Source: Escherichia coli
GTDB taxonomy: Bacteria; Pseudomonadota; Gammaproteobacteria; Enterobacterales; Enterobacteriaceae
Direction: 5' to 3' (one strand)
Assembly: GCF_003018255.1 (NCBI RefSeq)
Contig: NZ_CP027440.1
Length of the DNA stretch: 64,000 nucleotides
Below the pieces are notes generated by a model that was not told the origin of the DNA, ran no database searches, and was given only the letters and a program-made list of their open reading frames with translations. Below, in pieces: positions 1,212 to 46,630 of this stretch. How positions within the stretch are numbered: the first letter of the stretch is position 1; every line of letters begins with the position of its first letter. A program made the translations under genes and the position numbers.

Positions 1212-2080
1212 TGTCCATTTTAATTGATAAAAACACCAAGGTTATCTGCCAGGGCTTTACCGGTAGCCAGGGGACTTTCCACTCAGAACAGGCCATTGCA
1301 TACGGCACTAAAATGGTTGGCGGCGTAACCCCAGGTAAAGGCGGCACCACCCACCTCGGCCTGCCGGTGTTCAACACCGTGCGTGAAGCTGTTGCTGCTA
1401 CTGGCGCTACCGCTTCTGTTATCTACGTACCAGCACCGTTCTGCAAAGACTCCATTCTGGAAGCTATTGATGCAGGCATCAAACTAATTATCACCATCAC
1501 TGAAGGCATCCCGACGCTGGATATGCTGACCGTGAAAGTGAAACTGGATGAAGCAGGCGTTCGTATGATCGGCCCGAACTGCCCAGGCGTTATCACTCCG
1601 GGTGAATGCAAAATCGGTATCCAGCCGGGTCACATTCACAAACCGGGTAAAGTGGGTATCGTTTCCCGTTCCGGTACACTGACCTATGAAGCGGTTAAAC
1701 AGACCACGGATTACGGTTTCGGTCAGTCGACCTGTGTCGGTATCGGCGGTGACCCGATCCCTGGCTCTAACTTTATCGACATCCTCGAAATGTTCGAAAA
1801 AGATCCGCAGACCGAAGCGATCGTGATGATCGGTGAGATCGGCGGTAGCGCTGAAGAAGAAGCGGCTGCGTACATCAAAGAGCACGTTACCAAGCCTGTT
1901 GTGGGTTACATCGCTGGTGTGACTGCGCCGAAAGGCAAACGTATGGGCCACGCGGGTGCGATCATTGCCGGTGGGAAAGGGACTGCGGATGAGAAATTCG
2001 CTGCTCTGGAAGCCGCAGGCGTGAAAACCGTTCGCAGCCTGGCGGATATCGGTGAAGCACTGAAAACTGTTCTGAAATAA
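1211..2080 (+). CDS. sucD: succinyl-CoA synthetase alpha subunit
   Basis: 289-aa [27 protein letters not shown], CoA-binding alpha subunit; translationally coupled to sucC. Confidence 0.96.
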
Positions 2081-2180
2081 ATATCTGTAATAAGAAATAG
2101 CCCTCGCCGCTTCCTTCTACAGGAATGGCGAAGGGCTGTCGGTTTCGACATGGTTGGCCATCATATGATGGCCTTTTTTG
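2081..2180 (+). ncRNA. sdhX: sucD 3' UTR, likely source of the 3'UTR-derived sRNA SdhX, ending at an intrinsic terminator
   Basis: Position immediately downstream of sucD, ending in hairpin plus T-run; sRNA identity is from recollection of K-12, not sequence-verified. Confidence 0.4.
2156..2180. terminator. intrinsic terminator between convergent sucD and mngR
   Basis: Stem ggcca / tggcc around loop tcatatga, followed by tttttt. Confidence 0.7.
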
Positions 2181-2183
2181 TGC

Positions 2184-2906
2184 TTATCGCGATGATTTTC
2201 GCTGCGCTATCAGGGTAAATTTATAGTCATCGGTATTAAAAGCGTTGCGGCTATATTCAAACACCCGGCCATCAACTAAATATCCACGCGATACTTTTTC
2301 AAGAATCGGCTTAGTCTGGCTGATATTAAGCAGACGGCTCATTTCTTCGGTTGGCATCAGAGGAATGATTTCCTGTTCGCTACGATCGATAACCATTTTC
2401 TTCACTTCTTCAATAAAGTGATATTTCGAATTTTCCATGACCTGCCAGGTGAGATCCGGGAACAACGCAAGCGGCATCCAGGTTTCTTCCAGCGCCATTG
2501 GCTTTTGCTTGCGATAGCGCACGCGCTTCACATGCCACACACGATCCTGCGCGGTGATTTGTAGCTGTTGCTGAAGAAAATCGTCAGCCGGAATCACTTC
2601 GAATATCAGAACTTCACTGTGTGTATCGACGTGACGGTCCGTCAGTTTTTCATCAAAACTGGTTAACTGAAAAATATCGTAATTGACCCGCTCTTCTTTT
2701 ACGTAAGTCCCGCTGCCCTGAATGCTTTCGAGGATCTGCTGTTCAACTAACTGGCGCAAAGCCTGACGCACCGTAACCCGGCTGACGCCAAACTCTGTTT
2801 GTAGCGCTGATTCAGTGGGTAACGCATCGCCAGGTTTAAGCTCGCCACGCGCAATTTGCTCACGAATGCGATCAGCAATCTGTCGGTATAAGGGTTTCCG
2901 TCCCAT
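2184..2906 (-). CDS. mngR: GntR-family repressor of the mannosyl-glycerate operon
   Basis: 240-aa ORF MGRKPLYRQIADRIREQIARGEL with N-terminal GntR helix-turn-helix; divergent from mngA. Confidence 0.94.
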   Translation of the reverse strand: MGRKPLYRQIADRIREQIARGELKPGDALPTESALQTEFGVSRVTVRQALRQLVEQQILESIQGSGTYVKEERVNYDIFQLTSFDEKLTDRHVDTHSEVLIFEVIPADDFLQQQLQITAQDRVWHVKRVRYRKQKPMALEETWMPLALFPDLTWQVMENSKYHFIEEVKKMVIDRSEQEIIPLMPTEEMSRLLNISQTKPILEKVSRGYLVDGRVFEYSRNAFNTDDYKFTLIAQRKSSR

Positions 2907-3015
2907 GATTTAGCATCTCATTAATACGAATTTAGCCATTATGCCCGATAAATTCATCCTGTAAATAATACAAATACAATACAAATAATTTCAATCAAGT
3001 GAAATTGATCACATA

Positions 3016-4992
3016 ATGGTATTGTTTTATCGGGCACACTGGCGCGACTATAAAAACGATCAAGTGAGGATCATGATGAACCTGACGACTCTGACCCACC
3101 GCGATGCGTTGTGTCTGAATGCGCGCTTTACCAGCCGTGAAGAGGCCATCCACGCGTTGACTCAACGTCTTGCTGCTCTGGGGAAAATTTCCAGTACTGA
3201 GCAATTTCTGAAAGAAGTGTATCGCCGTGAAAGCCTTGGCCCGACCGCCTTAGGTGAAGGGCTGGCTGTGCCGCATGGCAAAACTGCTGCGGTAAAAGAA
3301 GCGGCGTTTGCGGTCGCCACACTCAGCGAGCCGCTTCAGTGGGAAGGCGTGGATGGCCCGGAAGCGGTTGATTTAGTGGTGTTGCTGGCGATTCCCCCCA
3401 ATGAAGCGGGTACTACGCACATGCAACTGCTGACAGCGCTGACCACGCGCCTGGCGGATGATGAGATACGGGCGCGTATACAGTCGGCGACGACGCCTGA
3501 TGAATTGCTCTCGGCGCTGGATGACAAGGGAGGCACGCAACCCTCAGCTTCTTTTTCCAACGCGCCAACTATCGTCTGCGTAACGGCCTGCCCGGCGGGT
3601 ATTGCTCACACCTATATGGCTGCGGAGTATCTGGAAAAAGCCGGACGCAAACTCGGCGTGAATGTCTACGTTGAAAAGCAAGGTGCTAACGGCATTGAAG
3701 GGCGTTTAACGGCAGAGCAACTCAATAGTGCAACCGCCTGTATTTTTGCGGCTGAAGTCGCCATCAAGGAGAGTGAGCGTTTTAACGGCATTCCCGCGCT
3801 TTCTGTGCCTGTTGCCGAGCCGATTCGCCATGCAGAAGCGTTGATCCAACAAGCGCTTAACCTCAAGCGTAGCGATGAGACGCGTACCGTACAGCAAGAT
3901 ACGCAACCGGTGAAAAGCCTCAAAACGGAGCTAAAACAGGCACTGTTGAGCGGGATCTCTTTTGCAGTGCCGTTGATTGTCGCGGGGGGCACGGTGCTGG
4001 CGGTTGCGGTATTACTGTCGCAAATCTTCGGGCTACAAGATTTGTTTAATGAAGAAAACTCCTGGCTGTGGATGTACCGCAAACTGGGCGGAGGGCTGCT
4101 CGGGATTTTGATGGTACCGGTGCTGGCAGCCTACACCGCCTATTCACTGGCTGATAAACCGGCGTTAGCGCCAGGCTTTGCGGCTGGACTTGCCGCCAAC
4201 ATGATCGGTTCCGGGTTTCTCGGTGCTGTCGTTGGCGGATTGATAGCCGGTTATCTGATGCGCTGGGTGAAAAATCACTTGCGTCTTAGCAGTAAATTCA
4301 ATGGATTCCTGACTTTTTATCTCTACCCGGTGCTCGGTACGTTGGGAGCGGGCAGTCTGATGCTGTTTGTGGTGGGGGAACCTGTCGCCTGGATCAATAA
4401 CTCGCTTACCGCCTGGCTGAACGGTCTGTCAGGAAGTAACGCGCTGTTGCTGGGTGCCATTCTCGGTTTTATGTGTTCCTTTGACCTTGGAGGGCCAGTG
4501 AACAAAGCCGCTTATGCATTCTGCCTGGGCGCAATGGCGAACGGCGTTTACGGCCCGTATGCCATTTTCGCCTCCGTCAAAATGGTTTCGGCATTTACCG
4601 TAACCGCTTCCACGATGCTCGCACCGCGCCTGTTTAAAGAGTTTGAAATTGAGACCGGGAAATCCACCTGGCTGTTAGGGCTGGCAGGTATTACCGAAGG
4701 GGCGATCCCGATGGCGATTGAAGATCCGCTGCGGGTTATTGGTTCGTTTGTGCTGGGCTCTATGGTAACGGGCGCTATCGTCGGCGCGATGAATATCGGC
4801 CTTTCGACACCCGGTGCCGGCATTTTCTCGCTCTTTTTACTTCATGATAATGGCGCGGGCGGTGTTATGGCGGCAATTGGCTGGTTTGGTGCGGCATTGG
4901 TGGGGGCTGCAATCTCGACTGCAATTCTTCTGATCTGGCGGCGTCACGCGGTTAAGCATGGCAACTATCTGACTGATGGCGTAATGCCATAA
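3016..4992 (+). CDS. mngA: PTS 2-O-alpha-mannosyl-D-glycerate-specific EIIABC
   Basis: 658-aa ORF with EIIA/EIIB region followed by polytopic membrane domain; length equals K-12 MngA as I recall; alternative start at ATG 3073. Confidence 0.92.
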
Positions 4993-5009
4993 ACAAAAAG
5001 GAAACGACG

Positions 5010-7643
5010 ATGAAAGCGGTATCTCGCGTTCACATCACCCCGCATATGCACTGGGATCGGGAGTGGTATTTCACCACCGAAGAGTCACGCATTCTGCTGG
5101 TCAATAATATGGAAGAGATCCTGTGCCGACTGGAACAGGACAACGAATACAAATATTACGTACTCGACGGGCAAACGGCGATCCTCGAAGATTATTTCGC
5201 GGTGAAACCGGAAAACAAAGACCGTGTGAAGAAACAGGTAGAAGCAGGCAAGTTGATTATCGGCCCCTGGTATACCCAGACCGATACCACGATTGTTTCT
5301 GCGGAATCCATCGTCCGTAATCTGATGTACGGAATGCGTGACTGCCTCACGTTTGGCGAGCCGATGAAAATAGGTTATTTACCAGATTCCTTTGGCATGT
5401 CCGGGCAACTGCCGCATATTTACAATGGATTTGGCATTACCCGCACCATGTTCTGGCGCGGATGTTCTGAGCGCCACGGTACTGATAAAACCGAGTTTTT
5501 GTGGCAAAGCAGTGACGGTAGCGAAGTGACGGCGCAGGTGCTGCCGCTGGGCTACGCCATCGGTAAGTACTTACCTGCCGACGAAGACGGATTACGCAAA
5601 CGCCTCGACAGTTATTTTGATGTGCTGGAAAAAGCGTCAGTAACCAAAGAGATTTTGCTGCCGAATGGTCATGACCAGATGCCATTGCAGCAAAATATCT
5701 TCGAAGTGATGGATAAGCTACGTGAGATCTACCCTCAACGTAAGTTTGTGATGAGCCGCTTTGAAGAGGTATTTGAGAAGATCGAAGCGCAGCGAGATAA
5801 TCTGGCAACCCTGAAAGGGGAATTTATTGATGGCAAATATATGCGCGTGCATCGCACCATCGGTTCTACGCGTATGGATATCAAAATTGCCCACGCGCGT
5901 ATTGAAAATAAGATTGTTAATCTGCTGGAACCGCTGGCAACGCTGGCCTGGACGTTGGGTTTTGAATACCACCACGGCTTGCTGGAGAAATTGTGGAAAG
6001 AAATTTTAAAAAACCACGCCCATGACAGCATCGGCTGCTGCTGTAGTGACAAAGTTCATCGCGAGATTGTCGCCCGTTTCGAACTGGCAGAAGACATGGC
6101 GGATAATCTGCTGCGTTTCTATATGCGTAAAATTGCCGATAACATGCCACAGAGTGATGCCGACAAACTTGTGCTGTTTAACCTGATGCCCTGGCCGCGG
6201 GAAGAAGTGATCAACACCACTGTGCGGCTGCGCGCCAGCCAGTTTAATTTGCGGGACGATCGCGGTCAGCCTGTACCGTATTTTATTCGCCATGCCCGTG
6301 AGATCGATCCTGGCCTAATCGATCGGCAAATCGTTCATTACGGTAATTATGATCCCTTTATGGAGTTTGATATTCAGATCAACCAGATTGTCCCTTCTAT
6401 GGGCTATCGCACGCTTTATATCGAAGCGAATCAGCCTGGCAACGTGATTGCGGCAAAAAGTGACGCTGAAGGGATACTGGAAAATGCTTTCTGGCAAATT
6501 GCGCTCAATGAGGATGGAACGCTACAACTGGTAGATAAAGACAGCGGTGTGCGCTATGACCGGGTGTTGCAAATTGAAGAAAGCTCTGATGATGGTGATG
6601 AATATGACTATTCACCCGCAAAAGAAGAGTGGGTAATTACTTCGGCGAACGCGAAACCGCAATGCGAGATTACTCATGAGGCCTGGCAGAGTAGGGCTGT
6701 TATCCGCTATGACATGGCGGTGCCGCGTAATCTGCATGAACGCAGCGCAAGACAATCCACTGGCAGAGTAGGGGTGGAGTTGGCTGTCACTCTGAGTGAT
6801 AACAGCAGGCGCATTGATGTGGATATCAACCTTGATAACCAGGCTGACGATCATCGCCTTCGCGTCCTGGTCCCTACACCTTTTAACACCGACAGTGTTC
6901 TGGCCGATACCCAGTTTGGTTCGCTAACGCGCCCCGTGAACGACAGTGCAATGAACAACTGGCAGCAAGAAGGCTGGAAAGAAGCGCCGGTTCCGGTATG
7001 GAATATGCTCAACTATGCTGCCTTACAGGAAGGGCGTAACGGTCTGGCTGTCTTTAGCGAAGGGCTACGTGAATATGAAGTCATCGGTGAAGAGAAGAAA
7101 ACCTTTGCCATTACGTTGCTGCGTGGCGTGGGCTTACTGGGGAAAGAAGATCTGCTTTTAAGGCCTGGACGTCCTTCAGGAATAAAAATGCCGGTGCCCG
7201 ATTCACAATTACGTGGCTCCTTTAGCTGCCGTCTGAGCTTATTTAGTTATACAGGTACGCCTTCGACCGCCGGTGTAGCCCAGCAGGCGCGCGCATGGCT
7301 GACGCCAGTACAGTGTTACAACAAAATCCCGTGGGATGCGATGAAGTTAAATAAAGCCGGATTCAATGTGCCGGAAAGCTATAGCTTGCTGAAAATGCCC
7401 CCTGTGGGATGCCTGATTAGCGCTCTTAAAAAAGCGGAAGACCGGCAAGAAGTGGTATTGCGACTGTTTAATCCGGCAGAATCGACAACCTGTGAGGCAA
7501 CTGTCGCGTTCAGTCGTGAGGTGATTTCATGTACGCAAACGATGATGGATGAAAGCATCAGCACAGCGGAAAGAGATAATTTAAAGGAACTGGGGGCATT
7601 TTTACCGGGGCAGTCACGGACATTTAGCTACCGCCTTGGCTGA
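5010..7643 (+). CDS. mngB: alpha-mannosidase (GH38)
   Basis: 877-aa [26 protein letters not shown]38 N-terminal signature; follows mngA by 18 nt. Confidence 0.94.
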
Positions 7644-7787
7644 TTATTGCGCTAAAAGTGTATCTGAGGGGGGCAATAATTTCAGGCCATCTTCGGATGG
7701 CCTGAGATTGTTGATAAACAAGTTTGTTAGCTTACGCAGATACCAGATTTGACCTGCGTGAGAACCGCAGGCCATTTATCATTTCAG

Positions 7788-9185
7788 TTACCCCTTAAAC
7801 GTTAACCACGGTCGAAATCTGACCGCTGGCTGAATTAATCCGGCTTCTTGTTGGGCTTCGATAACCGGACCAATATCTTTATAAGCCGCTGGCGCTTCTT
7901 CAAAACGTCGTTCTTCGCGCAATGTGACGCATTGCCACGGCAGCGTTGACTCTTCAGTCGCGCGTGAGCGCATGGCCTGCCGACGCTGGCTGCGTCCTGC
8001 TCCGTGACTGCATGACCACAGCCACTCCGGGTTGCCGCAACCTACCGCAAGCCACGAATAATCGCCCATTGAACCGGGGATTAACGCCAGATTGCCCACT
8101 CGTGCCGGTGTTGCGCCTTTGCGATGAATATTCATTTCATGCTCGCGAAGGATGATGTTATGTGGCACATCCACCACCAGATGCGAATTGTCCTGATGAA
8201 AGAGATTGGCAAGACATACGCGCACCATTTCGGCAATTGTGACGCGATTTAACCATGCGTAACGCGCCGCCATTCCTATCGCTTGTAGATATTCCTCCGC
8301 CAGTCCGCCTGCCAGACCATATAACCCGCTTTGTGGATGTTTATGTCCGGTGGGCCATTCAGCACGGGCGCGATCCATCCAGCGTCTTCCGACGTAAAAG
8401 CCAACATCTCGCGATCCACTGTGGATCATCACCACAATATCGCCTGTTTTCAGCCCTTGTTGCCAGGCTACATGGCGATCAACCACGCTATCAACGACCT
8501 GAAGTTCAATAAAATGATTACCTGAACCCGGCGTACCCAGACAAGGATCGCGGAGTAATGCGCGGTCCGTTGCCTGCAGGGCGGGTGGGGCATAACGCGA
8601 ATGACTGTTATGCTCGTTAAGCCCAATGCAGCGGTCAATCTCTTGTACCATTCGGGGGATATTCGTGCGTATCCAGAGACCTTCTGATGGCAAGGTCGAC
8701 ACGCAATCTGCCGGTCCGCCATCAAAAAGCGCGGTGAACGCCTGTGCGGATAACGGAACATCGCGCTCATTTTGCAGTAGCACTTGCGTTAACCGCTGAG
8801 CGATGACGTCTTTATGCGCTTCGGCTTGCTCAAGTGTTAATCCGGTCGTCAGCAGCCGCATGCCACAAGAAATATCGGTGCCGATGGCGGCGGGAATGAC
8901 TAAATCCGGCGTTGAGGCCACCACCGCGCCAACGGGGACGCCATTGCCGGGATGAAAATCTGGCGTCGCGCACGTCTGGCGCACATAACCTGGGTGGTCT
9001 GGTAGCTTCACTTCTGCAAAATCAAGCAGTTGTGTTACTGCTTTTTCTTCCAGCGGCAGTTCGTCCGGCAGCAGTACGCGGGCACTGGCACCTGATGGAC
9101 GAGATAATGAAACAATATTGTTGGCGCGGGAAAGTTGGATCCCTTTGCGCAGAAAGGCTTTATCAAGCCTTGAAAGATGATGCAT
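7788..9185 (-). CDS. RtcB-family RNA 3'-phosphate ligase paralogue (orphan, no rtcA/rtcR/prfH neighbour)
   Basis: 465-aa ORF; blocks IPAAIGTDISCGM, GSGNHFIELQ, MIHSGSRDVG, ALIPGSMGDYS, CSHGAGRS and C-terminal AYKDIGPV...KG align by eye to E. coli RtcB; about 29-residue N-terminal extension; ATG at 9185. Confidence 0.85.
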   Translation of the reverse strand: MHHLSRLDKAFLRKGIQLSRANNIVSLSRPSGASARVLLPDELPLEEKAVTQLLDFAEVKLPDHPGYVRQTCATPDFHPGNGVPVGAVVASTPDLVIPAAIGTDISCGMRLLTTGLTLEQAEAHKDVIAQRLTQVLLQNERDVPLSAQAFTALFDGGPADCVSTLPSEGLWIRTNIPRMVQEIDRCIGLNEHNSHSRYAPPALQATDRALLRDPCLGTPGSGNHFIELQVVDSVVDRHVAWQQGLKTGDIVVMIHSGSRDVGFYVGRRWMDRARAEWPTGHKHPQSGLYGLAGGLAEEYLQAIGMAARYAWLNRVTIAEMVRVCLANLFHQDNSHLVVDVPHNIILREHEMNIHRKGATPARVGNLALIPGSMGDYSWLAVGCGNPEWLWSCSHGAGRSQRRQAMRSRATEESTLPWQCVTLREERRFEEAPAAYKDIGPVIEAQQEAGLIQPAVRFRPWLTFKG

Positions 9186-9436
9186 AACGCTGTCCTGAAA
9201 TATAGACGTTAAACAACCCCCTGTATGGCGAGGGTAATTTTGTCTTTCCGGTCAGCAGCCAGCAAAAGGGAAAGAAAACGCGCGTAGTGTATGTGGCGAT
9301 AGCAAGTGTTACAAGTGGTAAATCTGGCTTATTGTTAAAGAGGAATTATCTTTTGTGAAGTCTTTTAAGGCCATGACTCATTCAATTTAACCGGACATAG
9401 ATAATATATAACATAGGGTATCTAAATTTATCATTG

Positions 9437-9575
9437 TATACTTGTCATAATTCAAGTTGCATGTGCTGCATCGATGTTCGCTCACCCAGGTCACTTACTT
9501 ATGTAAGCTTCTGGAAATTCATTATTTGTTCCCTTCCTGCAACTTGACTTATTTAGAGTATATTCATGTATACAC
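9437..9575. repeat. ERIC (IRU) repetitive element
   Basis: Contains cgctcaccc.ggtcacttacttatgtaagct (reverse complement of the ERIC2/ERIC1R primer regions) with inverted termini tgtatac...gtataca; near-identical to the copy at 46501-46630. Confidence 0.8.
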
Positions 9576-10060
9576 ATCGAGATTTCAGCCAGCAGACGCG
9601 CATCTGGCGTGCCGTGGCGGATCTGTAGCGGTTTTTGCAGAGTTTCGGTGAGGCGACGGCAAGCTGCAACGCCGTGGTTAACGACCGGTAAACCGTTCAG
9701 TTTAGAGGTTCCGGCTTCGATGGATTTTTTAATCCCTACAGCCGCTTCTTCGTACCGATTCAGACGGGTATATGCATCGATGGTGCTCGGCAGCAGATCG
9801 CACTCTTCTTGTAGTGTTTTCAGTAGTTCGATGTGTTCGTCCATCAGCGCCACACCTGCGCGCGGTTGGCTAAGGGTTTTACCTTCCTTGTCTGCTTTCA
9901 ACAGCGCAAGAGAGAAGCGTTTATGCTCAGGAATGGTTTGTTGGTATTTAACGCCATCTTCAAAGTTTTCAACATCCTTGCCGGTTTCCCAGGTTTTCAG
10001 TACCTGTTGCCGCTCGGTCATGAATTCGTCATGGGTTAATTTCTTATTTCGAAGTTCCAT
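9491..10060 (-). pseudogene. glmE: glutamate mutase E subunit (methylaspartate mutase epsilon), truncated
   Basis: First about 160 aa ([50 protein letters not shown]) match GlmE/MutE; homology ends near 9580 where the frame runs into the ERIC element and stops; full-length GlmE is about 480 aa. Confidence 0.75.
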
Positions 10061-10078
10061 TGATTGCAGCCTTAATTG

Positions 10079-11467
10079 TTATAGGGTTAAGCATTGAATA
10101 CTGGTGCGCGCGGCGGCCAGCGGATCGACTCTGGCGACGTTTGCCAGCAGTGGTAATAGCCCCCGGGAATCGCGGTAATATTCAAATTCGGTCGGTAAGA
10201 GAATGCGTTTACCGTCGTCGTTTAACTCGCGGTATTTCAACCAGTGATGCATATCGAACTGACTGGCACGCGAGAGCCATCCGCCGGATCCGACGACTTT
10301 ACGCACGGTTGTCAGGTCACGTCCCATCTGTAAATCGACATTGCCGACGCAGGTGCAGACCTCTTTTTTGGTGCCCGCATGTCTTTCGGTGGCATAACCC
10401 ACACACAGTCCGGCCAGGACGGTATCGAAATATTTTTCTTCTGCATTCGCGGGTAAGTAGTCGGGATGAGCGACTAGATGACGGAGGTAATGATAAAAAG
10501 CGTCCAGCTGTGCGGGTTGCTGAGCAAAATTCACATTGACTAACTCTTTCGCACTTTCACCAACCACCATTGCCGAGACGCGCATTCCCAGATCTCCTTC
10601 CACCGTCCGTTTTACGAAGGGTTCCGGTACGCCATGTAAAACAGTGTCGGGCGAGAGCGTGTTGGCACTGGCGGAATAGACATCGGTGGTTGCGCCACCC
10701 ATGTCGATCAGCATGAACTCTTTCCAGCTGTGATCGACATTACTGATTGCCTTAACCAGTTCAAAGACTGTCCACGGTGTCGGCATTGGTTCTTCGCCTG
10801 TTTTATCAACAACGACATCCAGCCCTTTCCCTTTAACGATGCGTTTAAGGAATATGTCGCAGATAGCCTGGCGTGCAGCTAAAGGGTTCGGATGGTCAAG
10901 ATCGGGCAGAACGTTGTCGACGATGGTCAGGTCTTTATGCCCGAGGATCTCCTGCACCTCGTCCTGAATATCCCGGTTTCCGGCATAAATAATGGCGCAG
11001 TCGAGTTTGGATTCTGCCAACACACGGGCGTTATTCAGTCCGTAGCTTTCTTCTCCGCCATCGGTGCCGCCGGTGAACAAGAGAATATCGGGCTGCGTTT
11101 CTTCCAGTGCCTGGATATCACGGCGGTTCAGCTTGTAGGCGTAAGATTGCGCAATTTTAGCACCCGCAGAGTGAGCGGTTACTTTCGCGGTTTCCAGGGT
11201 GATAGAAGGCACCAATCCCATTGCGGCAACCGCCAGCCCACCTTTGGCAGAGGAGGAATACTTCAATGCAACCTCACCACTGTTTAACAGGGGGAGGGCA
11301 TCATCTACGTTTAACACCTGGTCCAGGCTGGAGAAAAACCCCTTCGCCAGATGATGGGTGGTGGTTGGGGTCAGTACGTGGTTAACCAACGTTAACGCGT
11401 CCCCCTCCCGGGCGAAGAGGGCTGCTTTGGTCCACGTCGATCCAATATCGACAGAGACGATTTGCAT
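10079..11467 (-). CDS. glmL: glutamate mutase accessory protein GlmL/MutL (actin/Hsp70-like fold)
   Basis: 462-aa [21 protein letters not shown], between glmS and glmE as in clostridial mut operons; start overlaps glmS stop. Confidence 0.75.
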   Translation of the reverse strand: MQIVSVDIGSTWTKAALFAREGDALTLVNHVLTPTTTHHLAKGFFSSLDQVLNVDDALPLLNSGEVALKYSSSAKGGLAVAAMGLVPSITLETAKVTAHSAGAKIAQSYAYKLNRRDIQALEETQPDILLFTGGTDGGEESYGLNNARVLAESKLDCAIIYAGNRDIQDEVQEILGHKDLTIVDNVLPDLDHPNPLAARQAICDIFLKRIVKGKGLDVVVDKTGEEPMPTPWTVFELVKAISNVDHSWKEFMLIDMGGATTDVYSASANTLSPDTVLHGVPEPFVKRTVEGDLGMRVSAMVVGESAKELVNVNFAQQPAQLDAFYHYLRHLVAHPDYLPANAEEKYFDTVLAGLCVGYATERHAGTKKEVCTCVGNVDLQMGRDLTTVRKVVGSGGWLSRASQFDMHHWLKYRELNDDGKRILLPTEFEYYRDSRGLLPLLANVARVDPLAAARTSIQCLTL

Positions 11468-11916
11468 CAGATTGCCTCTTCAAGAATACGAGTATCAACG
11501 TCATGACGTTGGTTGATATCGTGGGCCATCAGCTGACAAACATCTTCTAAGTCATGACTTGGGGCAAAGACGCGATCAAATCCCATCTCTTTGAATTTGG
11601 TTTCCACGTCAGCGAAGTCATGTTTTCCGACCACCAGGTTACCGCCCACATAGAGCAGGATGTCCCCCAGTCCACGCTCGATGCAGCGTTCGCGCATGCC
11701 CAGACAGTCGATATCGCCATGCCCATAGATAGAGGAGACGACAATCGCGTCAGCACCAGTTTCAATGGCAGCATCAATATATTCGTCCTGGCTGACCATT
11801 ACGCCCAGATTAATAACTCTGAAGTCATGGTTGCTAAAAACGCGGTCCAGAACTTTATTGCCTACTGCATGGCAGTCCGCGCCAATAACGCCAATCACAA
11901 GTGTTGCTTTCTTCAT
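11467..11916 (-). CDS. glmS: glutamate mutase S subunit (B12-binding sigma subunit)
   Basis: 149 aa from [24 protein letters not shown] with DxHxxG cobalamin-binding motif; GGA-type SD upstream of ATG at 11916 (the track ORF extends further 5'). Confidence 0.82.
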
Positions 11917-12463
11917 GGGTAATCCTTTGTAAGACAGAGAGTAAAATAAGTTACACACGTCGTATTTATGGCCGCTCATAACGGCACAGGTTTAATATCA
12001 CAGGAGTGTCTTTATCTGACCGTAATGTTGCAATTGATCTATTTTCAAAATGTCTTTCGGGAAATGATTGTTTAAAGTGTGTTTTCAAATTCTCATGTTA
12101 ATTCAGTGTGTTATGTCAACTAATGTCATGAATGTTAAATTTTTAAAATTAACTTGATTTGATGTATTGAGATAATTGTGATCAACTTCTAATTTGCATT
12201 TTAGTGATATGGGGTTAGCCATGAGTAAATGCATTTCATAAAAGTTAAGTCGAATTTCACTGCAATTCATCTCTGCTTAATGTAAAAATAATGTTGAAAA
12301 TAACAAATAATTAATGATTCATGCGAATTATGACCTTTGTTAGCTCTTTTGATTTTTCGTAAAAAAGAAAAGTACATGAAGGTGCTACCAGTACGAGAAA
12401 CGTTAATCAAAAGTTTTATTACGTCTGGCAATAACGCAGGCCATTTTTCGCGACAGGAGGGAT

Positions 12464-12886
12464 TTAATCAGTATAATCCTCATACAATAGGTCAGGATTT
12501 ACAGAACCGTTAACGGGGTTTTGGTGTTGAAATTTAGAAATGGTGGAGTCAATCAATGAAGACAGTATCGAAAAAATGACTGTGTCAGAATTAATTTCAA
12601 TTAATCCTTCTCGTTGTTGACCAAAAAAGATATTTATCTTGATTTCATTTGTACTACGGAAATCAATATGTAGTAATTTTTGATCGCTGAGATTTTCTGT
12701 TTCATAAATGTTTTTGGCGATAGTCGGATGTATTGATGCCAGACATCTGCTCAGATAAGCCAGATCCTTTAGGGAACACCCCGCTGAGTAGAGGATGTCA
12801 GAGAATTTTTGTGTGTCAACTGTTGGCTCTGAAGCGTATGTTGCATTGACTGGAAGGGTGTTGAAGGAGATTTGAGATGGGATCAT
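12464..12886 (-). CDS. hypothetical protein, 140 aa, no recognisable family
   Basis: Uninterrupted ORF in a strongly AT-rich block, co-directional with and 80 bp downstream of the 314-aa ORF; weak SD; no motif I can identify. Confidence 0.5.
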   Translation of the reverse strand: MIPSQISFNTLPVNATYASEPTVDTQKFSDILYSAGCSLKDLAYLSRCLASIHPTIAKNIYETENLSDQKLLHIDFRSTNEIKINIFFGQQREGLIEINSDTVIFSILSSLIDSTISKFQHQNPVNGSVNPDLLYEDYTD

Positions 12887-12966
12887 TATTTAAATCTTTC
12901 CGTGAGTAATAAAAATTAATCCCCGGGCATTGTTTAGTAATATTTGCCACAGGGGATATATAAAAA

Positions 12967-13911
12967 TTAAAGTATTTGATTGGCATCGGTTAACTGATCA
13001 ATAACCAGTGCCAGATTGGTAAACATTTTGAAAAAGCGATACTGGCTCGGAATATCTCTTTCAAAGACGAAACATTCAATGTCATTGTTTGAAAAATAAA
13101 GGACTAGTGATGCTGATTCGTCAGGAAAAATATGGAAATATATCTGGTTACCAGAAGGAGGATAGTCCAGAAGAAGGGTATCTTTGCCCGTCACATACCT
13201 GTTGTGGTCGTGGATGCTGCGCTCACACTTCATCAGAGGTGTCATGATACTCATGTATTCATCTGATGTTAATATATTAAAATCACCATCCATTTTAAAG
13301 AAACGATAAAGTAACAGTACATCCTCTTGCGTAACCGGTTCGTTTGTTTTTAGAGGGAAATAAGTGGGAACCAGAAGATGAGGTTCTAATCTATTTTGTT
13401 GAGCGCTATAACTAAATTTGAACATAAATTCCGGATCGCTCATCAATTGAGCGACATAATTATGCCTGGCTTCAAAAATTTTAACTTTTATCAGGTTAAA
13501 TAAGTCTGTTTCGTCATCCTGTATTAAAAGACATTGGCCATAGCAGCCAGGCTTTTTTTCATTATAAGCAGAAACGGTTATTCTGTCAGGAGTGTCAACG
13601 TTATATCCAAAAGCCAGATAGTGACCTTCCTCATCGAGATTTGTTTCCAGGTTATTTAAATTCATCACATGAAGTGTTTGCAATGCTGATTCAATGAGCT
13701 GTTGACTCTCTGAGGTAAATGTTTCGCGCTGCGTTGTATAAAGTGTATCGATTCCAACGACTATCCGATGTGGGTCAAGGATGGCGGCAATCATCTTTAT
13801 TACCTGCACAGTCATGGGTGATGTCATTGATTCTTTATCTGTTTTTAGAGGATCATTAGATGGCCAACCTGAGAAGCGATTGACAGCAGAACTGATAATA
13901 TCAGGACTCAT
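12967..13911 (-). CDS. hypothetical protein, 314 aa, no recognisable family
   Basis: Long ORF in AT-rich DNA with GAGG SD 9 nt upstream of ATG at 13911; no long hydrophobic segments, no P-loop or other motif recognised. Confidence 0.6.
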   Translation of the reverse strand: MSPDIISSAVNRFSGWPSNDPLKTDKESMTSPMTVQVIKMIAAILDPHRIVVGIDTLYTTQRETFTSESQQLIESALQTLHVMNLNNLETNLDEEGHYLAFGYNVDTPDRITVSAYNEKKPGCYGQCLLIQDDETDLFNLIKVKIFEARHNYVAQLMSDPEFMFKFSYSAQQNRLEPHLLVPTYFPLKTNEPVTQEDVLLLYRFFKMDGDFNILTSDEYMSIMTPLMKCERSIHDHNRYVTGKDTLLLDYPPSGNQIYFHIFPDESASLVLYFSNNDIECFVFERDIPSQYRFFKMFTNLALVIDQLTDANQIL

Positions 13912-14339
13912 AGCAGCAACCTCATTGTAATCAAGCGAGGCGCTGAGCGTACTCGGCTATAGAAAAACTAACTTGCAAAAATCGCTCATTTTTCATTTAT
14001 CAGGCGAAAGTGGTCTCTGTTCACTCAGAAACAATCACTCCCGCTAAGTCATACCTGTTTCATCGATACATTTAAGTGATTATTACTAATGAAACAATAA
14101 CATAATGGGCTTACGGCCGGTGCTCATAAACGCAACAATCAATTAACTTTGATAAAAATATGTTATGTAAAATAGCAACAAATTGGCTAATCTAATCAAT
14201 TGGTATTATAAAAAGTGGATAAGGCGGTTCTGTTAAATAAAACACTGGTTTTTTATCTATACCTTTTCATTGTAATAATTGTGTTGCATAAATATTTCAC
14301 AATAAATTAACAATAAAATCACCAATGATCTATGGTTTA

Positions 14340-14713
14340 TACATAATTAACATATTTGGTTGATTTTGATATAAATCAATTTTTAATTCTTGAAAAAAAT
14401 CTGCAAAACACGATAAATTGTCGTAGATCAAATTGGTGAGATCGTGACAATTTCGCTATAAATTGATCACTGTCGAAAAATGCAAATTTGCTCAATAAAA
14501 ACCTGTTTATTGTAAGGATTTTGCGGCGTAATATAATTACGGGATCAATTTGGTTTATTCATTAACACATTTGTAACTTTTTTATCATTGTCTTTTCCTC
14601 TTTTGATGAAATGGCAACGATAGAGGCGAGCAAATAATTTTGTATTGGGGCATGCGTGTGACCCTTTCTAACGGGGTTCACTCTCGGAGTCTTCATGCGA
14701 TGAGCAAGGAGTC
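14340..14713 (+). promoter_or_regulatory. cydAB promoter/regulatory region with FNR-type sites
   Basis: TTGAT-ATAA-ATCAA at 14356-14369 and TTGTC-GTAG-ATCAA at 14418-14431 match the FNR consensus TTGAT-N4-ATCAA; AT-rich upstream of cydA. Confidence 0.6.
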
Positions 14714-14716
14714 ATG

Positions 14717-16285
14717 ATGTTAGATATAGTCGAACTGTCGCGCTTACAGTTTGCCTTGACCGCGATGTACCACTTCCTTTTTGTGCCACTGACGCTCGGT
14801 ATGGCGTTCCTGCTGGCCATTATGGAAACGGTCTACGTCCTTTCCGGCAAACAGATTTATAAAGATATGACCAAGTTCTGGGGCAAGTTGTTTGGTATCA
14901 ACTTCGCTCTGGGTGTGGCTACCGGTCTGACCATGGAGTTCCAGTTCGGGACTAACTGGTCTTACTATTCCCACTATGTAGGGGATATCTTCGGTGCGCC
15001 GCTGGCAATCGAAGGTCTGATGGCCTTCTTCCTCGAATCCACCTTTGTAGGTCTGTTCTTCTTCGGTTGGGATCGTCTGGGTAAAGTTCAGCATATGTGT
15101 GTCACCTGGCTGGTGGCGCTCGGTTCAAACCTGTCCGCACTGTGGATTCTGGTTGCGAACGGCTGGATGCAAAACCCAATCGCGTCCGATTTCAACTTTG
15201 AAACTATGCGTATGGAGATGGTGAGCTTCTCCGAGCTGGTGCTTAACCCGGTTGCTCAGGTGAAATTCGTTCACACTGTAGCGTCTGGTTATGTGACTGG
15301 CGCGATGTTCATCCTCGGTATCAGCGCATGGTATATGCTGAAAGGTCGTGACTTCGCCTTCGCTAAACGCTCTTTTGCTATCGCTGCCAGCTTCGGTATG
15401 GCTGCCGTTCTGTCTGTTATTGTTCTGGGTGATGAATCTGGTTACGAAATGGGCGACGTGCAGAAAACCAAACTGGCTGCTATTGAAGCCGAGTGGGAAA
15501 CGCAACCTGCGCCTGCTGCCTTTACTCTGTTCGGCATTCCTGATCAGGAAGAGGAGACGAACAAATTTGCGATCCAGATCCCTTACGCGCTGGGCATCAT
15601 TGCAACGCGTTCCGTGGATACTCCAGTTATCGGCCTGAAAGAACTGATGGTGCAGCATGAAGAACGCATTCGTAACGGGATGAAGGCGTACTCTCTGCTC
15701 GAGCAACTGCGTTCTGGTTCTACCGACCAGGCGGTTCGTGACCAGTTCAATAGCATGAAGAAAGACCTCGGTTACGGTCTGCTGCTGAAACGCTATACGC
15801 CAAACGTGGCTGATGCGACTGAAGCGCAGATTCAACAGGCAACCAAAGACTCCATTCCGCGTGTAGCGCCGCTGTACTTCGCGTTCCGTATCATGGTGGC
15901 GTGTGGCTTCCTGCTGCTGGCAATCATCGCGCTCTCTTTCTGGAGTGTCATCCGCAACCGCATTGGCGAGAAAAAATGGCTGCTGCGCGCCGCGCTGTAC
16001 GGTATTCCGCTGCCGTGGATTGCTGTAGAAGCGGGCTGGTTCGTGGCTGAATATGGTCGCCAACCGTGGGCTATCGGTGAAGTGCTGCCGACAGCTGTGG
16101 CGAACTCGTCACTGACCGCAGGCGATCTCATCTTCTCAATGGTGCTGATTTGCGGCCTGTATACCCTGTTCCTGGTGGCAGAATTGTTCTTAATGTTCAA
16201 ATTTGCACGCCTCGGCCCAAGCAGCCTGAAAACCGGTCGCTATCACTTTGAGCAGTCTTCCACGACTACTCAGCCGGCACGCTAA
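14717..16285 (+). CDS. cydA: cytochrome bd-I ubiquinol oxidase subunit I
   Basis: [20 protein letters not shown]..., 522 aa; the track ORF starts one codon earlier at 14714. Confidence 0.96.
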
Positions 16286-16300
16286 GACAGGAGTCGTCAA

Positions 16301-17440
16301 ATGATCGATTATGAAGTATTGCGTTTTATCTGGTGGCTGCTGGTTGGCGTTCTGCTGATTGGTTTTGCAGTCACTGACGGTTTCGACATGGGGGTGGGCA
16401 TGCTCACTCGTTTCCTCGGTCGTAACGACACCGAGCGTCGAATTATGATTAACTCCATTGCACCACACTGGGACGGTAACCAGGTATGGCTTATCACCGC
16501 GGGCGGCGCACTCTTTGCTGCCTGGCCGATGGTCTATGCCGCTGCGTTCTCCGGCTTCTATGTGGCGATGATCCTCGTGCTGGCGTCTTTGTTCTTCCGT
16601 CCGGTCGGTTTTGACTACCGCTCCAAGATTGAAGAAACCCGCTGGCGTAACATGTGGGACTGGGGCATCTTCATTGGTAGCTTCGTTCCGCCGTTGGTGA
16701 TTGGTGTAGCGTTCGGTAACCTGTTGCAGGGCGTACCGTTCAACGTTGATGAATATCTGCGTCTGTACTACACCGGTAACTTCTTCCACCTGCTTAATCC
16801 GTTCGGCCTGCTGGCAGGCGTGGTGAGCGTAGGGATGATCATTACTCAGGGCGCAACCTATCTGCAAATGCGTACCGTGGGCGAACTGCACCTGCGTACC
16901 CGTGCAACGGCTCAGGTGGCGGCACTGGTGACACTGGTCTGTTTCGCACTGGCTGGCGTATGGGTGATGTACGGTATCGATGGTTATGTCGTGAAATCGA
17001 CAATGGACCATTACGCAGCCTCTAACCCACTGAATAAAGAAGTGGTTCGTGAAGCTGGCGCATGGCTGGTTAACTTCAACAACACGCCAATTCTGTGGGC
17101 TATTCCGGCACTGGGTGTGGTTCTGCCGCTGCTGACCATCCTGACTGCACGTATGGATAAAGCGGCGTGGGCGTTTGTGTTCTCCTCCCTGACGCTGGCC
17201 TGCATCATCCTGACAGCCGGTATCGCAATGTTCCCGTTTGTGATGCCGTCCAGCACCATGATGAACGCAAGTCTGACAATGTGGGATGCAACTTCCAGCC
17301 AGCTGACGCTTAACGTCATGACCTGGGTTGCGGTGGTTCTGGTACCGATCATTCTGCTCTACACCGCCTGGTGTTACTGGAAAATGTTCGGTCGTATCAC
17401 CAAAGAAGATATTGAACGTAACACCCACTCTCTGTACTAA
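16301..17440 (+). CDS. cydB: cytochrome bd-I ubiquinol oxidase subunit II
   Basis: 379-aa polytopic membrane protein MIDYEVLRFIWWLLVGV immediately after cydA. Confidence 0.96.
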   Translation: MIDYEVLRFIWWLLVGVLLIGFAVTDGFDMGVGMLTRFLGRNDTERRIMINSIAPHWDGNQVWLITAGGALFAAWPMVYAAAFSGFYVAMILVLASLFFRPVGFDYRSKIEETRWRNMWDWGIFIGSFVPPLVIGVAFGNLLQGVPFNVDEYLRLYYTGNFFHLLNPFGLLAGVVSVGMIITQGATYLQMRTVGELHLRTRATAQVAALVTLVCFALAGVWVMYGIDGYVVKSTMDHYAASNPLNKEVVREAGAWLVNFNNTPILWAIPALGVVLPLLTILTARMDKAAWAFVFSSLTLACIILTAGIAMFPFVMPSSTMMNASLTMWDATSSQLTLNVMTWVAVVLVPIILLYTAWCYWKMFGRITKEDIERNTHSLY

Positions 17441-17454
17441 GTAAGGAGCTAAAA

Positions 17455-17568
17455 ATGTGGTATTTCGCATGGATTCTGGGAACGCTTCTTGCCTGTTCGT
17501 TTGGGGTAATCACCGCGCTGGCGCTTGAGCACGTCGAATCAGGCAAAGCCGGTCAAGAAGACATCTGA
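17455..17568 (+). CDS. cydX: cytochrome bd-I small subunit CydX
   Basis: 37-codon ORF MWYFAWILGTLLACSFGVITALALEHVESGKAGQEDI read manually (below the track's length cutoff); single TM helix; stop overlaps ybgE start. Confidence 0.85.
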   Translation: MWYFAWILGTLLACSFGVITALALEHVESGKAGQEDI

Positions 17569-17861
17569 TGAGTAAGATTATCGCAACCTTGTATGCGGTA
17601 ATGGACAAGCGCCCCCTGCGGGCGCTTTCCTTCGTGATGGCGCTTCTGTTAGCAGGATGTATGTTTTGGGACCCATCACGTTTCGCCGCGAAGACCAGTG
17701 AACTGGAAATCTGGCATGGTTTATTGCTGATGTGGGCCGTCTGTGCTGGTGTGATTCACGGCGTGGGCTTTCGTCCGCAGAAGGTTCTTTGGCAAGGGAT
17801 TTTTTGCCCATTGCTTGCCGATATTGTTCTCATTGTCGGGCTGATTTTCTTCTTCTTTTAA
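17568..17861 (+). CDS. ybgE: small inner-membrane protein of the cyd operon
   Basis: 97-aa hydrophobic ORF MSKIIATLYAVMDKRP following cydX. Confidence 0.85.
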   Translation: MSKIIATLYAVMDKRPLRALSFVMALLLAGCMFWDPSRFAAKTSELEIWHGLLLMWAVCAGVIHGVGFRPQKVLWQGIFCPLLADIVLIVGLIFFFF

Positions 17862-17883
17862 ATCAGAATTCTCTTTAAAAAAT

Positions 17884-17912
17884 TATGGGCCGCTCCAGGC
17901 CCATAAATTTTT
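17884..17912 (+). terminator. intrinsic terminator after the cyd operon
   Basis: Hairpin tatgggcc / ggcccata followed by a T-run. Confidence 0.65.
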
Positions 17913-18010
17913 ACGCTCCCTTAACTTGCCCTCATTCCCAAACCTCAATCGCGCGCGTATAGTAGCAGCGTTTAAAAGCTCTAACTTTTGTTGCATTACC
18001 GGGATGTAAA

Positions 18011-19104
<1,094 letters not shown>

Positions 19105-19107
19105 GCC

Positions 19108-19536
19108 ATGGCCAGAGCGCGTGGACGAGGTCGTCGCGATCTCAAGTCCGAAATCAACATTGTACCGTTGCTGGACGTACTGCTGGTGCTGTTGCTGATC
19201 TTTATGGCGACAGCGCCCATCATCACCCAGAGCGTGGAGGTCGATCTGCCAGACGCTACTGAATCACAGGCGGTGAGCAGTAACGATAATCCGCCAGTGA
19301 TTGTTGAAGTGTCTGGTATTGGTCAGTACACCGTGGTGGTTGAGAAAGATCGCCTGGAGCGTTTACCACCAGAGCAGGTGGTGGCGGAAGTGTCCAGCCG
19401 TTTCAAGGCCAACCCGAAAACGGTCTTTCTGATCGGTGGCGCAAAAGATGTGCCTTACGATGAAATAATTAAAGCACTGAACTTGTTACATAGTGCGGGT
19501 GTGAAATCGGTTGGTTTAATGACGCAGCCTATCTAA
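19108..19536 (+). CDS. tolR: Tol-Pal system protein TolR
   Basis: 142-aa MotB/ExbD-family protein. Confidence 0.96.
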   Translation: MARARGRGRRDLKSEINIVPLLDVLLVLLLIFMATAPIITQSVEVDLPDATESQAVSSNDNPPVIVEVSGIGQYTVVVEKDRLERLPPEQVVAEVSSRFKANPKTVFLIGGAKDVPYDEIIKALNLLHSAGVKSVGLMTQPI

Positions 19537-19600
19537 ACATCTGCGTTTCCCTTGCTTGAAAGAGAGCGGGTAACAGGCGAACAGTTTTTGGAAACCGAGA

Positions 19601-20866
19601 GTGTCAAAGGCAACCGAACAAAACGACAAGCTCAAGCGGGCGATAATTATTTCAGCAGTGCTGCATGTCATCTTATTTGCGGCGCTGATCTGGAGTTCGT
19701 TCGATGAGAATATAGAAGCTTCAGCCGGAGGCGGCGGTGGTTCATCCATCGACGCTGTCATGGTTGATTCAGGTGCGGTAGTTGAGCAGTACAAACGCAT
19801 GCAAAGCCAGGAATCAAGCGCGAAGCGTTCTGATGAGCAGCGCAAGATGAAGGAACAGCAGGCTGCGGAAGAGCTGCGTGAGAAACAAGCGGCTGAACAG
19901 GAACGCCTGAAGCAACTTGAGAAAGAGCGGTTAGCTGCTCAGGAGCAGAAAAAGCAGGCTGAAGAAGCCGCAAAACAGGCCGAGTTAAAGCAGAAGCAAG
20001 CGGAAGAAGCGGCAGCGAAAGCGGCGGCAGATGCTAAAGCGAAGGCCGAAGCGGATGCTAAAGCTGCGGAAGAAGCTGCGAAGAAAGCGGCTGCAGACGC
20101 GAAGAAAAAAGCAGAAGCAGAAGCCGCCAAAGCCGCAGCCGAAGCGCAGAAAAAAGCCGAGGCAGCCGCGGCGGCACTGAAGAAGAAAGCGGAAGCGGCA
20201 GAAGCAGCTGCAGCTGAAGCAAGAAAGAAAGCGGCAACTGAAGCTGCTGAAAAAGCCAAAGCAGAAGCTGAGAAGAAAGCGGCTGCTGAAAAGGCTGCAG
20301 CTGATAAGAAAGCGGCAGCAGAGAAAGCTGCAGCCGACAAAAAAGCAGCAGAAAAAGCGGCTGCTGAAAAGGCAGCAGCTGATAAGAAAGCAGCGGCAGA
20401 AAAAGCCGCCGCAGACAAAAAAGCGGCAGCTGCAAAAGCAGCAGCTGAAAAAGCCGCTGCAGCAAAAGCTGCCGCAGAGGCAGATGATATTTTCGGTGAG
20501 CTAAGCTCTGGTAAGAATGCACCGAAAACGGGGGGAGGGGCGAAAGGGAACAATGCTTCGCCAGCCGGGAGTGGTAATACTAAAAACAATGGCGCATCAG
20601 GGGCCGATATCAATAACTATGCCGGGCAGATTAAATCTGCTATCGAAAGTAAGTTCTATGACGCATCGTCCTATGCAGGCAAAACCTGTACGCTGCGCAT
20701 AAAACTGGCTCCCGATGGTATGTTACTGGATATCAAACCTGAAGGTGGCGATCCCGCACTTTGTCAGGCTGCGTTGGCAGCAGCTAAACTTGCGAAGATC
20801 CCGAAACCACCAAGCCAGGCAGTATATGAAGTGTTCAAAAACGCGCCATTGGACTTCAAACCGTAA
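19601..20866 (+). CDS. tolA: Tol-Pal system protein TolA
   Basis: 421-aa ORF, GTG start, with long Ala/Lys/Glu-rich helical domain II encoded by degenerate tandem repeats (about 19.9-20.5 kb). Confidence 0.95.
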   Translation: MSKATEQNDKLKRAIIISAVLHVILFAALIWSSFDENIEASAGGGGGSSIDAVMVDSGAVVEQYKRMQSQESSAKRSDEQRKMKEQQAAEELREKQAAEQERLKQLEKERLAAQEQKKQAEEAAKQAELKQKQAEEAAAKAAADAKAKAEADAKAAEEAAKKAAADAKKKAEAEAAKAAAEAQKKAEAAAAALKKKAEAAEAAAAEARKKAATEAAEKAKAEAEKKAAAEKAAADKKAAAEKAAADKKAAEKAAAEKAAADKKAAAEKAAADKKAAAAKAAAEKAAAAKAAAEADDIFGELSSGKNAPKTGGGAKGNNASPAGSGNTKNNGASGADINNYAGQIKSAIESKFYDASSYAGKTCTLRIKLAPDGMLLDIKPEGGDPALCQAALAAAKLAKIPKPPSQAVYEVFKNAPLDFKP

Positions 20867-20998
20867 TCGCGATGTTGACTGTTCCGACGGTCAACATCAG
20901 GCACCGGTTGCCACGGGGTTCTGGTAGTTTTGTGTATTTTAGTTTGTTAACATTCTGCTAAATTATCGTGGGCCATCGGTCCAGATAAGGGAGATATG

Positions 20999-22291: not shown

Positions 22292-22301
22292 TAATAATTA
22301 A

Positions 22302-22847
<546 letters not shown>

Positions 22848-22856
22848 GAGAATTGC

Positions 22857-23648: not shown

Positions 23649-23812
23649 TGCATAACACACGACCAGAAGTCGCATTATTTCTGGTCGTGTCGTGCGAATC
23701 ATAAGCAGTTGAGTGATCTGCATCGAAATTTTTGTTGCGCTCAAGTCTGAAATCAGTAATATATGCCGCCGTTGCCACGGGATATCAAACAAACCGAAAG
23801 CAACGAAAAAGT

Positions 23813-46500: not shown

Positions 46501-46630
46501 ATATACTCGTCATACTTCAAGTTGCATGTGCTGCGTCTGCGTTCGCTCACCCCAGTCACTTACTTATGTAAGCTCCTGGGGATTCACTCGCTTGTCGCCT
46601 TCCTGCAACTCGAATTATTTAGAGTATATC
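46501..46630. repeat. ERIC (IRU) repetitive element
   Basis: atatactcgtcat...cgctcaccccagtcacttacttatgtaagctcctggggattcac...gagtatat; palindromic; matches the ERIC1R/ERIC2 primer regions. Confidence 0.85.

Follow-up and report, generated by a model that had tools for sequence, protein, structure and literature searches.

The mngB-cydA interval of an Escherichia coli genome as a probable remnant of an old, multi-module Escherichia gene block shortened by an 8,843-bp deletion

The Escherichia coli sequence analyzed here (64,000 nucleotides of NZ_CP027440.1, hereafter the window) carries a gene block between mngB and cydA that is lacking from K-12-type genomes. In BLASTN comparison with the K-12-type genome EPI300, window positions 5500-7646 and 14341-16500 were aligned, and the intervening segment 7647-14340 (6,694 bp) stands in place of a 470-bp K-12-specific spacer with repetitive extragenic palindromic (REP)-like repeats. 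The whole mngB-cydA gap in EPI300 is 846 bp. The flanks are in K-12 order, with sucC, sucD, mngR, mngA and mngB to the left of the interval and cydA and cydB to its right. The original prediction had placed the limits of the block at 7650-14330, within about 10 bp of the BLASTN breakpoints, and had expected K-12 order on both sides and only a few hundred bp between mngB and cydA in K-12; alignment to K-12-type sequence bears this out and yields the exact breakpoints. The five non-K-12 open reading frames (ORFs) that it listed, an RtcB paralogue, a glmS-glmL-glmE' remnant and two unknown ORFs, were all recovered and are absent from the K-12-type sequence. The segment 7000-15000 is 100% identical to that in E. 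coli JNE23-011 (NZ_AP045067.1). The features of the interval are as follows, where ERIC denotes the enterobacterial repetitive intergenic consensus.

7644..7792: spacer downstream of mngB, which accompanies the mng module in genomes that carry the island
7788..9185, minus strand: RtcB-family RNA ligase gene, intact, 465 aa (Pfam RtcB PF01139, E 6.9e-95, residues 63-465)
9186..9572: retained rtcB-LysR spacer, 387 bp including ERIC, 99% identical to ETEC1738 and 98.9% to EE72d
9437-9563: ERIC, 127 bp, 83% identical to the ERIC at 46501-46629; its core is the ERIC2 primer sequence with 2 mismatches
9573..9574: deletion junction, with 2 filler bases (CA) matching neither parent
9575..10060, minus strand: glmE' pseudogene, first 162 of 481 codons (TIGR01503 positions 1-161 of 480, E 2.6e-75)
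10079..11467, minus strand: glmL, methylaspartate mutase accessory protein, 462 aa, intact (TIGR01319 full length, 883 bits)
11467..11916, minus strand: glmS, B12-binding S subunit of methylaspartate (glutamate) mutase, 149 aa, intact (NF002612)
11917..12463: AT-rich spacer upstream of glmS, 32% G+C, 91% conserved in Escherichia sp. MOD1-EC7003
12464..12886, minus strand: orphan ORF, 140 aa, isoelectric point (pI) 4.65, 37% G+C, named homologs all in E. coli or Shigella
12967..13911, minus strand: orphan ORF, 314 aa, pI 4.69, 38% G+C, found in Escherichia only, divergent from cydA

The fullest form of this locus, about 15.5 kb, is present in EE72d, with the order sucD-mngR-mngA-mngB-rtcB-LysR-cobO-class I fumarase (fumD)-dicarboxylate/amino-acid symporter-DUF4387-AtuA-mal-glmE-glmL-glmS-140-aa ORF-314-aa ORF-cydA. 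On the minus strand, the cluster in the full form reads glmS-glmL-glmE-mal-AtuA-DUF4387-transporter-fumD-cobO, with the LysR gene on the opposite strand at the far end. Except for one 8,843-bp gap, the window and EE72d have collinear sequences that are 97.7-98.7% identical, window positions 3000-9572 corresponding to 964-7536 and positions 9575-17000 to 16380-23804 of the reverse-complemented EE72d sequence. The left edge of the gap lies in the rtcB-LysR spacer and its right edge after glmE codon 162; missing are LysR, cobO, fumD, the transporter, DUF4387, AtuA (DUF1446), mal (the methylaspartate ammonia-lyase gene) and the 3'-terminal two-thirds of glmE. No microhomology was found when the junction sequences at 9572/9575 were compared. 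We propose that, in the lineage of the source strain, 8,843 bp were lost in one illegitimate-recombination event, which fused the rtcB-LysR spacer to glmE codon 162. Among the 5,426 complete E. coli genomes, only 5 cover a 401-bp junction probe in full, with 99.5-100% identity, and the hosts of these carriers are human, monkey and pig. Since the junction occurs in five independent complete genomes, misassembly is ruled out. The deletion thus looks like a recent, lineage-specific event, as this distribution suggests.

An ERIC copy at an internal deletion junction had been noticed earlier, and the 127-bp ERIC indeed ends 9 bp before the junction. Like other ERIC elements, it is an imperfect palindrome of about 127 bp with a conserved central core and belongs to that family; its arms (9437-9461 and 9538-9562) are 80% complementary. 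This copy is native to the rtcB-LysR spacer, where undeleted genomes have it too. The deletion did not generate it and simply ends beyond it.

The glm genes belong to a published methylaspartate cluster (Kronen and Berg, 2015, PMC4682846; Kato and Asano, 1997, cited there). This pathway turns glutamate into methylaspartate by means of a B12-dependent mutase with S and E subunits, then into mesaconate by an ammonia-lyase and into (S)-citramalate by FumD (PMC4682846). The window GlmS scores 253 bits against NF002612 (cut-off 110) and 246.6 bits against TIGR01501 (cut-off 135.8), which places it in both families, and the protein is identical to the annotated copies in O145:H28 and O157:H7. GlmL scores 508.7 bits against NF040745 (cut-off 475) and is likewise a family member; its ratio of nonsynonymous to synonymous substitution rates (dN/dS) relative to other strains is 0.14-0.19. 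The GlmE' fragment, with 253.8 bits against a cut-off of 390.1, does not qualify as a full-length E subunit, and RefSeq annotates it as an incomplete pseudogene. Its frame stays open past the junction until a stop in the spacer at 9491, which creates a chimeric ORF of 189 aa. No methylaspartate ammonia-lyase or FumD ORF was found in 7647-14340, the locus being the only region considered. The spacer at 11917-12463 presumably holds the glm operon promoter region.

The genes of the O157:H7 glutamate-fermentation cluster, their order and their place between the suc operon and cydA are the same. The window copy differs from it by the 8,843-bp deletion, with glmE cut to 162 codons. The O157 form is without mngRAB and has only scars of rtcB left, whereas the window has both. 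With a truncated glmE and neither mal nor fumD, the window copy fails as a functional cluster and, from its gene content, would best be described as a remnant. Glutamate mutase requires the E subunit, the carrier of the active site. As the E subunit is truncated and no ammonia-lyase or mesaconase is encoded at the locus, the glutamate pathway would be dead in the source strain, judged from this locus only; the transporter, the adenosyltransferase and the regulator are missing there as well. We infer that glmS and glmL persist only since the deletion is recent.

In the RtcB-family protein, the RtcB domain is complete (model positions 7-426 of 426 in PF01139), and the protein is thus a member of this family. 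The motifs DFHPG, DISCG, GSGNHF, HSGSR, HN and HGAGR are kept in alignments to the solved RtcB structures of P. horikoshii and T. thermophilus; we take them to provide the metal ligands and the GMP-accepting histidine. The closest non-Escherichia relatives, from Pseudomonas, Burkholderia, Variovorax, Ralstonia and Chitinimonas, share 60-67% amino acid identity, and the window protein is a member of a clade of about 465 aa that is common in Pseudomonas, Burkholderia and Variovorax. It was compared with K-12 RtcB of the rtcBA/rtcR operon and with RtcB2 of the RtcB2-PrfH ribosome-repair module (PMC9223846, PMC9304027). The full-length domain and the metal-binding and histidine-nucleophile motifs are common to all of them, but the window protein is longer (465 aa), solitary and below the NCBIfam equivalog cut-offs of both, with 208.7 against 407 bits for the K-12-type model NF007153 and 171.8 against 271.8 bits for TIGR03073, the model of PrfH-linked RtcB2. 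No rtcA, rtcR or prfH neighbor was found; the neighbors of rtcB are mngB and the glm remnant. The RtcB paralogue is probably an active RNA ligase for 2',3'-cyclic-phosphate/3'-phosphate and 5'-OH ends, as the retained motifs suggest.

The two remaining ORFs are both predicted to be acidic, soluble proteins without a membrane span. Neither matched any entry in Pfam, NCBIfam or PADLOC, and PHROGs gave nothing significant, the best match being that of the 140-aa ORF at E 0.051. An exhaustive phmmer search with the 314-aa ORF against 1.84 billion representatives retrieved only self-fragments. AlphaFold2 models, built on shallow alignments, are unusable because their mean predicted local distance difference test (pLDDT) scores are 43.5 (314 aa) and 40.3 (140 aa). 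The lengths of 314 and 140 aa are constant across many E. coli alleles, and the dN/dS values are 0.39-0.52 (314-aa ORF) and 0.20-0.30 (140-aa ORF), compared with 0.006 for cydA. Paralogy between the two orphans was rejected (BLASTP E = 1.2). N-termini rich in Ser, Thr, Pro and Asn, together with the small acidic partner and the low G+C, had brought up the idea of a type III effector and chaperone pair; it was dropped, being supported by no tool result. A literature search with guessed Sakai/EDL933 locus tags for the orphans returned nothing relevant.

The base composition of the interval is mosaic. The G+C content is 35.3% at 11980-14340, the lowest of the 64-kb window, whose other 2.36-kb windows average 51.5% (standard deviation 2.0%). 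The rtcB and glm genes have 49-54% G+C, and the atypical composition is confined to 11980-14340, the region of 11.98-14.3 kb already described as AT-rich in the original prediction. The lack of integrase, insertion sequence (IS), tRNA and flanking repeats stated there was also reproduced: the ORF list of the interval contains no integrase or transposase ORF and no IS element, no tRNA gene was found in the interval, and the direct repeats around it are only short and at chance level. A search of 7500-14800 against Rfam gave nothing even at E ≤ 1, and promoter and terminator scans were not above shuffled expectation. A terminator-like hairpin with an 18-bp stem is located at 7674-7713 in the spacer downstream of mngB. 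The 470-bp K-12 spacer contains no island remnants, only REP-like repeats.

A search of the 5,426 complete E. coli genomes retrieved the AT-rich module (11980-14340) from 1,138 (21%). All of these genomes but one have it once, and 1 of its 1,139 places is on a record labelled plasmid. The rtcB segment matches 689 genomes; in 40 evenly spaced rows of these matches the gene is present in 17 and the remainder is a 39-bp scar, which extrapolates to about 290 genomes with the rtcB-like gene. The glm/mal cluster has been reported in 26.5% of E. coli (PMC4682846). These frequencies contradict the strain-specific insertion proposed earlier. What is restricted in scope is the 8.8-kb deletion form, which is rare (five genomes), whereas the components of the block are common. 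The following structural forms were distinguished besides those of the window and EE72d.

O157/O145/042 form: sucD, rtcB scars and the full cluster, without mng
ETEC1738 form: sucD-rtcB-cluster
LD67-1 form: hut operon between rtcB and LysR
23CRST031 form: IS1 and IS903B on either side of a truncated LysR gene, other cluster genes absent
MS15046 form: sucD, tetratricopeptide-repeat pseudogene, cydA
K-12 form: mngRAB, REP spacer, cydA

The mngRAB genes with a 146-bp tail (approximately 2184-7792) form an indel relative to the mng-less forms. EE72d matches start at window position 7644, while the mng-less ETEC1738 and LD67-1 match only from 7793. In the sucD-LysR spacer of strain 042 (L013, 7001-7096), rtcB fragments of 39 bp (window 7793-7831) and 57 bp (8005-8061) were detected; the gene was therefore formerly there and then lost. 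Decay is also seen within the cluster, as mal and glmL are frameshifted in O145:H28 and fumD has an internal stop in strain 300033. Some further details of these forms were noted. In the ETEC1738-, 042- and O157-type forms, sucD and about 100 bp are followed directly by rtcB or its scar. The hut block of LD67-1 (L006, 11151-18891), with its left junction at the equivalent of window position 9293, contains hutU, a permease, a hutD-like gene, hutI, hutG and a HAL/PAL-family lyase gene. MS15046 (L020, 7197-8312) has the tetratricopeptide-repeat pseudogene and neither mng nor the island.

To follow the block across the genus, one genome per species was scanned with the 314-aa ORF as the query. The ORF was found in two Escherichia species. 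The other two matches were in metagenome bins labelled Collinsella and Citrobacter, with copies 98-99% identical, and were taken as wrongly binned E. coli contigs. The homolog in E. albertii NBRC 107761 shares 68% identity, is split into frames of 209 and 108 aa, and is located beside cydA. In Escherichia sp. MOD1-EC7003 the homolog is about 50% identical (tblastn) and broken by two ERIC insertions; its neighbors are glmS-glmL-glmE-mal-AtuA-DUF4387-transporter, as in E. coli. The two ERIC copies (L018, approximately 10345-10472 and 11087-11214) are in opposite orientation and represent a gene-inactivating insertion. An intact copy with 64% identity was found between cydA and sucD in the Escherichia-like contig L009, which is probably from E. 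albertii or a relative. A segment of about 1.86 kb adjoining cydA in E. albertii and L009 aligns to window positions 12861-14716 with about 80% nucleotide identity. L009 also has a 258-aa ORF (11786-12562) between the 314-aa orphan and sucD; its N-terminus resembles a signal peptide, no Pfam hit is recorded for it, and nothing in the window corresponds to it.

Taken together, the interval is very likely the remnant of a multi-module Escherichia block that was cut by one 8,843-bp deletion. The segment would be the residue of a variable block residing between the suc/mng operons and cydAB, and three modules may be distinguished in it: a solitary rtcB, the methylaspartate cluster, and two AT-rich orphans divergent from cydA. 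The block is probably old in the genus and has repeatedly been lost. Since the components are common in E. coli and the 314-aa ORF lies by cydA in E. albertii and MOD1-EC7003, it is likelier that the K-12 arrangement was derived through loss or replacement than that the window form arose by gain. The earlier description as an old, decaying island rather than a fresh mobile insertion fits both the collinearity with EE72d minus 8,843 bp and the genus-wide residence. Several points weigh against this interpretation. The 470-bp K-12 spacer is not contained in any island-bearing form; K-12 therefore did not derive simply by deletion, and its form calls for a replacement event or a separate history of the mng-cydA junction. 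The block could be spread between Escherichia lineages by homologous recombination via the conserved suc/cyd flanks, and shared position alone is no proof of vertical descent. When the window is compared with L009, the 314-aa ORF has a dS of 0.51, about twice that of cydA (0.26), which could reflect a different history or just different constraints.

Two other explanations of the block were considered. It could be a recent horizontal island, brought by a mobile element into a K-12-like mngB-cydA spacer, given the strongly AT-rich right third (35% G+C), its absence from K-12-type genomes and the beta- and gamma-proteobacterial affiliation of the closest non-Escherichia relatives of the RtcB gene. 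Such an origin is scarcely credible, however, because the hallmarks of a mobile island (integrase, IS, tRNA and flanking repeats) are missing, the block replaces 470 bp of K-12 spacer rather than interrupting it, and 21% of E. coli, E. albertii and one unclassified Escherichia species have it at the same site. A tblastn search of a plasmid collection with the 314-aa ORF returned only three non-mobilizable E. coli records of 0.7-4.9 Mb, which look like mislabelled chromosomes or chromosome fragments, and a plasmid origin was rejected on this account. Alternatively, the remnant might be alive, with glmS-glmL, the chimeric GlmE', RtcB and the orphans kept for a glutamate-independent function after adaptive streamlining. 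In keeping with this, neither orphan is disrupted, nor are glmL, glmS and rtcB, every gene tested has a dN/dS below 1, and the deletion form occurs in hosts as unlike as human, monkey and pig. We regard this as very improbable. The near identity of the five carriers at the junction implies that decay has had too little time, the dN/dS values come from comparison with intact-cluster strains and reflect selection before the deletion, and the need of glutamate mutase for the active site of its E subunit is established biochemistry. Even the intact O157:H7 cluster was not inducible in the laboratory, and no expression conditions were found for it (PMC4682846). A multi-module block with one internal deletion is preferred.

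The block itself is already known, since it corresponds to the published enterobacterial glutamate-fermentation cluster with its usual neighbors and is already annotated in RefSeq. What the window displays is ordinary genome decay and no new insertion. The result is of small wider importance; it supplies exact breakpoints for one rare deletion form. The sucD-cydA interval is a multi-allelic hotspot, in which an old Escherichia block is lost piecemeal.

Whether the two AT-rich ORFs are genes at all also needs to be considered. Lineage-restricted ORFans of E. coli are AT-rich and typically silenced by H-NS. The orphans resemble these in low G+C, genus-restricted homologs, relaxed purifying selection and frequent pseudogenization; peculiar to this pair is a location just upstream of the cydAB control region, in divergent orientation. 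Alternatively, the DNA upstream of cydA might be an AT-rich spacer with H-NS-type silencing in which these frames are open by chance. The absence of domains and of non-Escherichia homologs, the low AlphaFold2 confidence, the pseudogenized copies in E. albertii NBRC 107761, MOD1-EC7003 and O145:H28, and the fairly high dN/dS of the 314-aa ORF (0.4-0.5) would all agree with this. Chance frames nevertheless appear unlikely, as a frame of 314 codons has stayed open at 64% amino acid identity and a dS of 0.5 in DNA of 38% G+C, in which stops are frequent, and as dN/dS is clearly below 1 for both ORFs and their lengths are conserved among E. coli alleles. Both orphans are taken here as putative real genes under relaxed constraint that are often pseudogenized. 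They are restricted to the genus and without detectable relatives, yet present in O157:H7.

The block also alters the sequence upstream of cydA. The following features were annotated in this region.

13912..14340: island-type distal part of the orphan/cydA intergenic region, without K-12-type counterpart (MAFFT, BLASTN)
14341..14716, plus strand: cydAB proximal promoter region shared with K-12 (alignment)
14366-14379: FNR box (pattern scan), conserved with K-12
14296-14312 and 14562-14578: ArcA-like repeats (pattern scan)

From position 14076, the cydA-upstream sequence is common to the island-type and the island-less MS15046-type genomes, and the E. albertii spacer aligns to it too. K-12-type genomes share only the proximal ~380 bp. 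In MG1655, chromatin immunoprecipitation sequencing of ArcA revealed three sites upstream of cydA (PMC3798270 supplements). These sites were compared between window positions 13912-14716 and the K-12-type EPI300 sequence (L003, 2145-2990). The strongest MG1655 ArcA site, cydA1 (770081-770111, AAGTTAACTAAATGTTAA), lies upstream of the ATG at a distance of about 590 bp. It is part of the 470-bp K-12-specific spacer, and no sequence in the window corresponds to it. The cydA2 site straddles the breakpoint and is recognizable at 14296-14312, and cydA3 is conserved at 14562-14578. In about 21% of E. coli genomes, the distal cydAB control region is thus unlike that of the model strain, and island-type strains may regulate cytochrome bd-I somewhat differently from K-12. 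The work on ArcA, FNR and H-NS at cydAB was all done in K-12, which is distally unlike a fifth of strains. A stronger claim, that the orphans constitute a functional module and a new protein family and, together with the 430 bp of island-type upstream DNA, alter cydAB control, is quite doubtful. If it were true, the cydAB control region of island-bearing strains (about one fifth of E. coli) would be shared with a divergent orphan promoter.

Two minor observations concern the window outside the interval. The mngB allele is 92.6% identical to that in K-12 and 97.7% identical to that in EE72d. The second, well-preserved ERIC element, at 46501-46629, has perfect matches to both ERIC primers.

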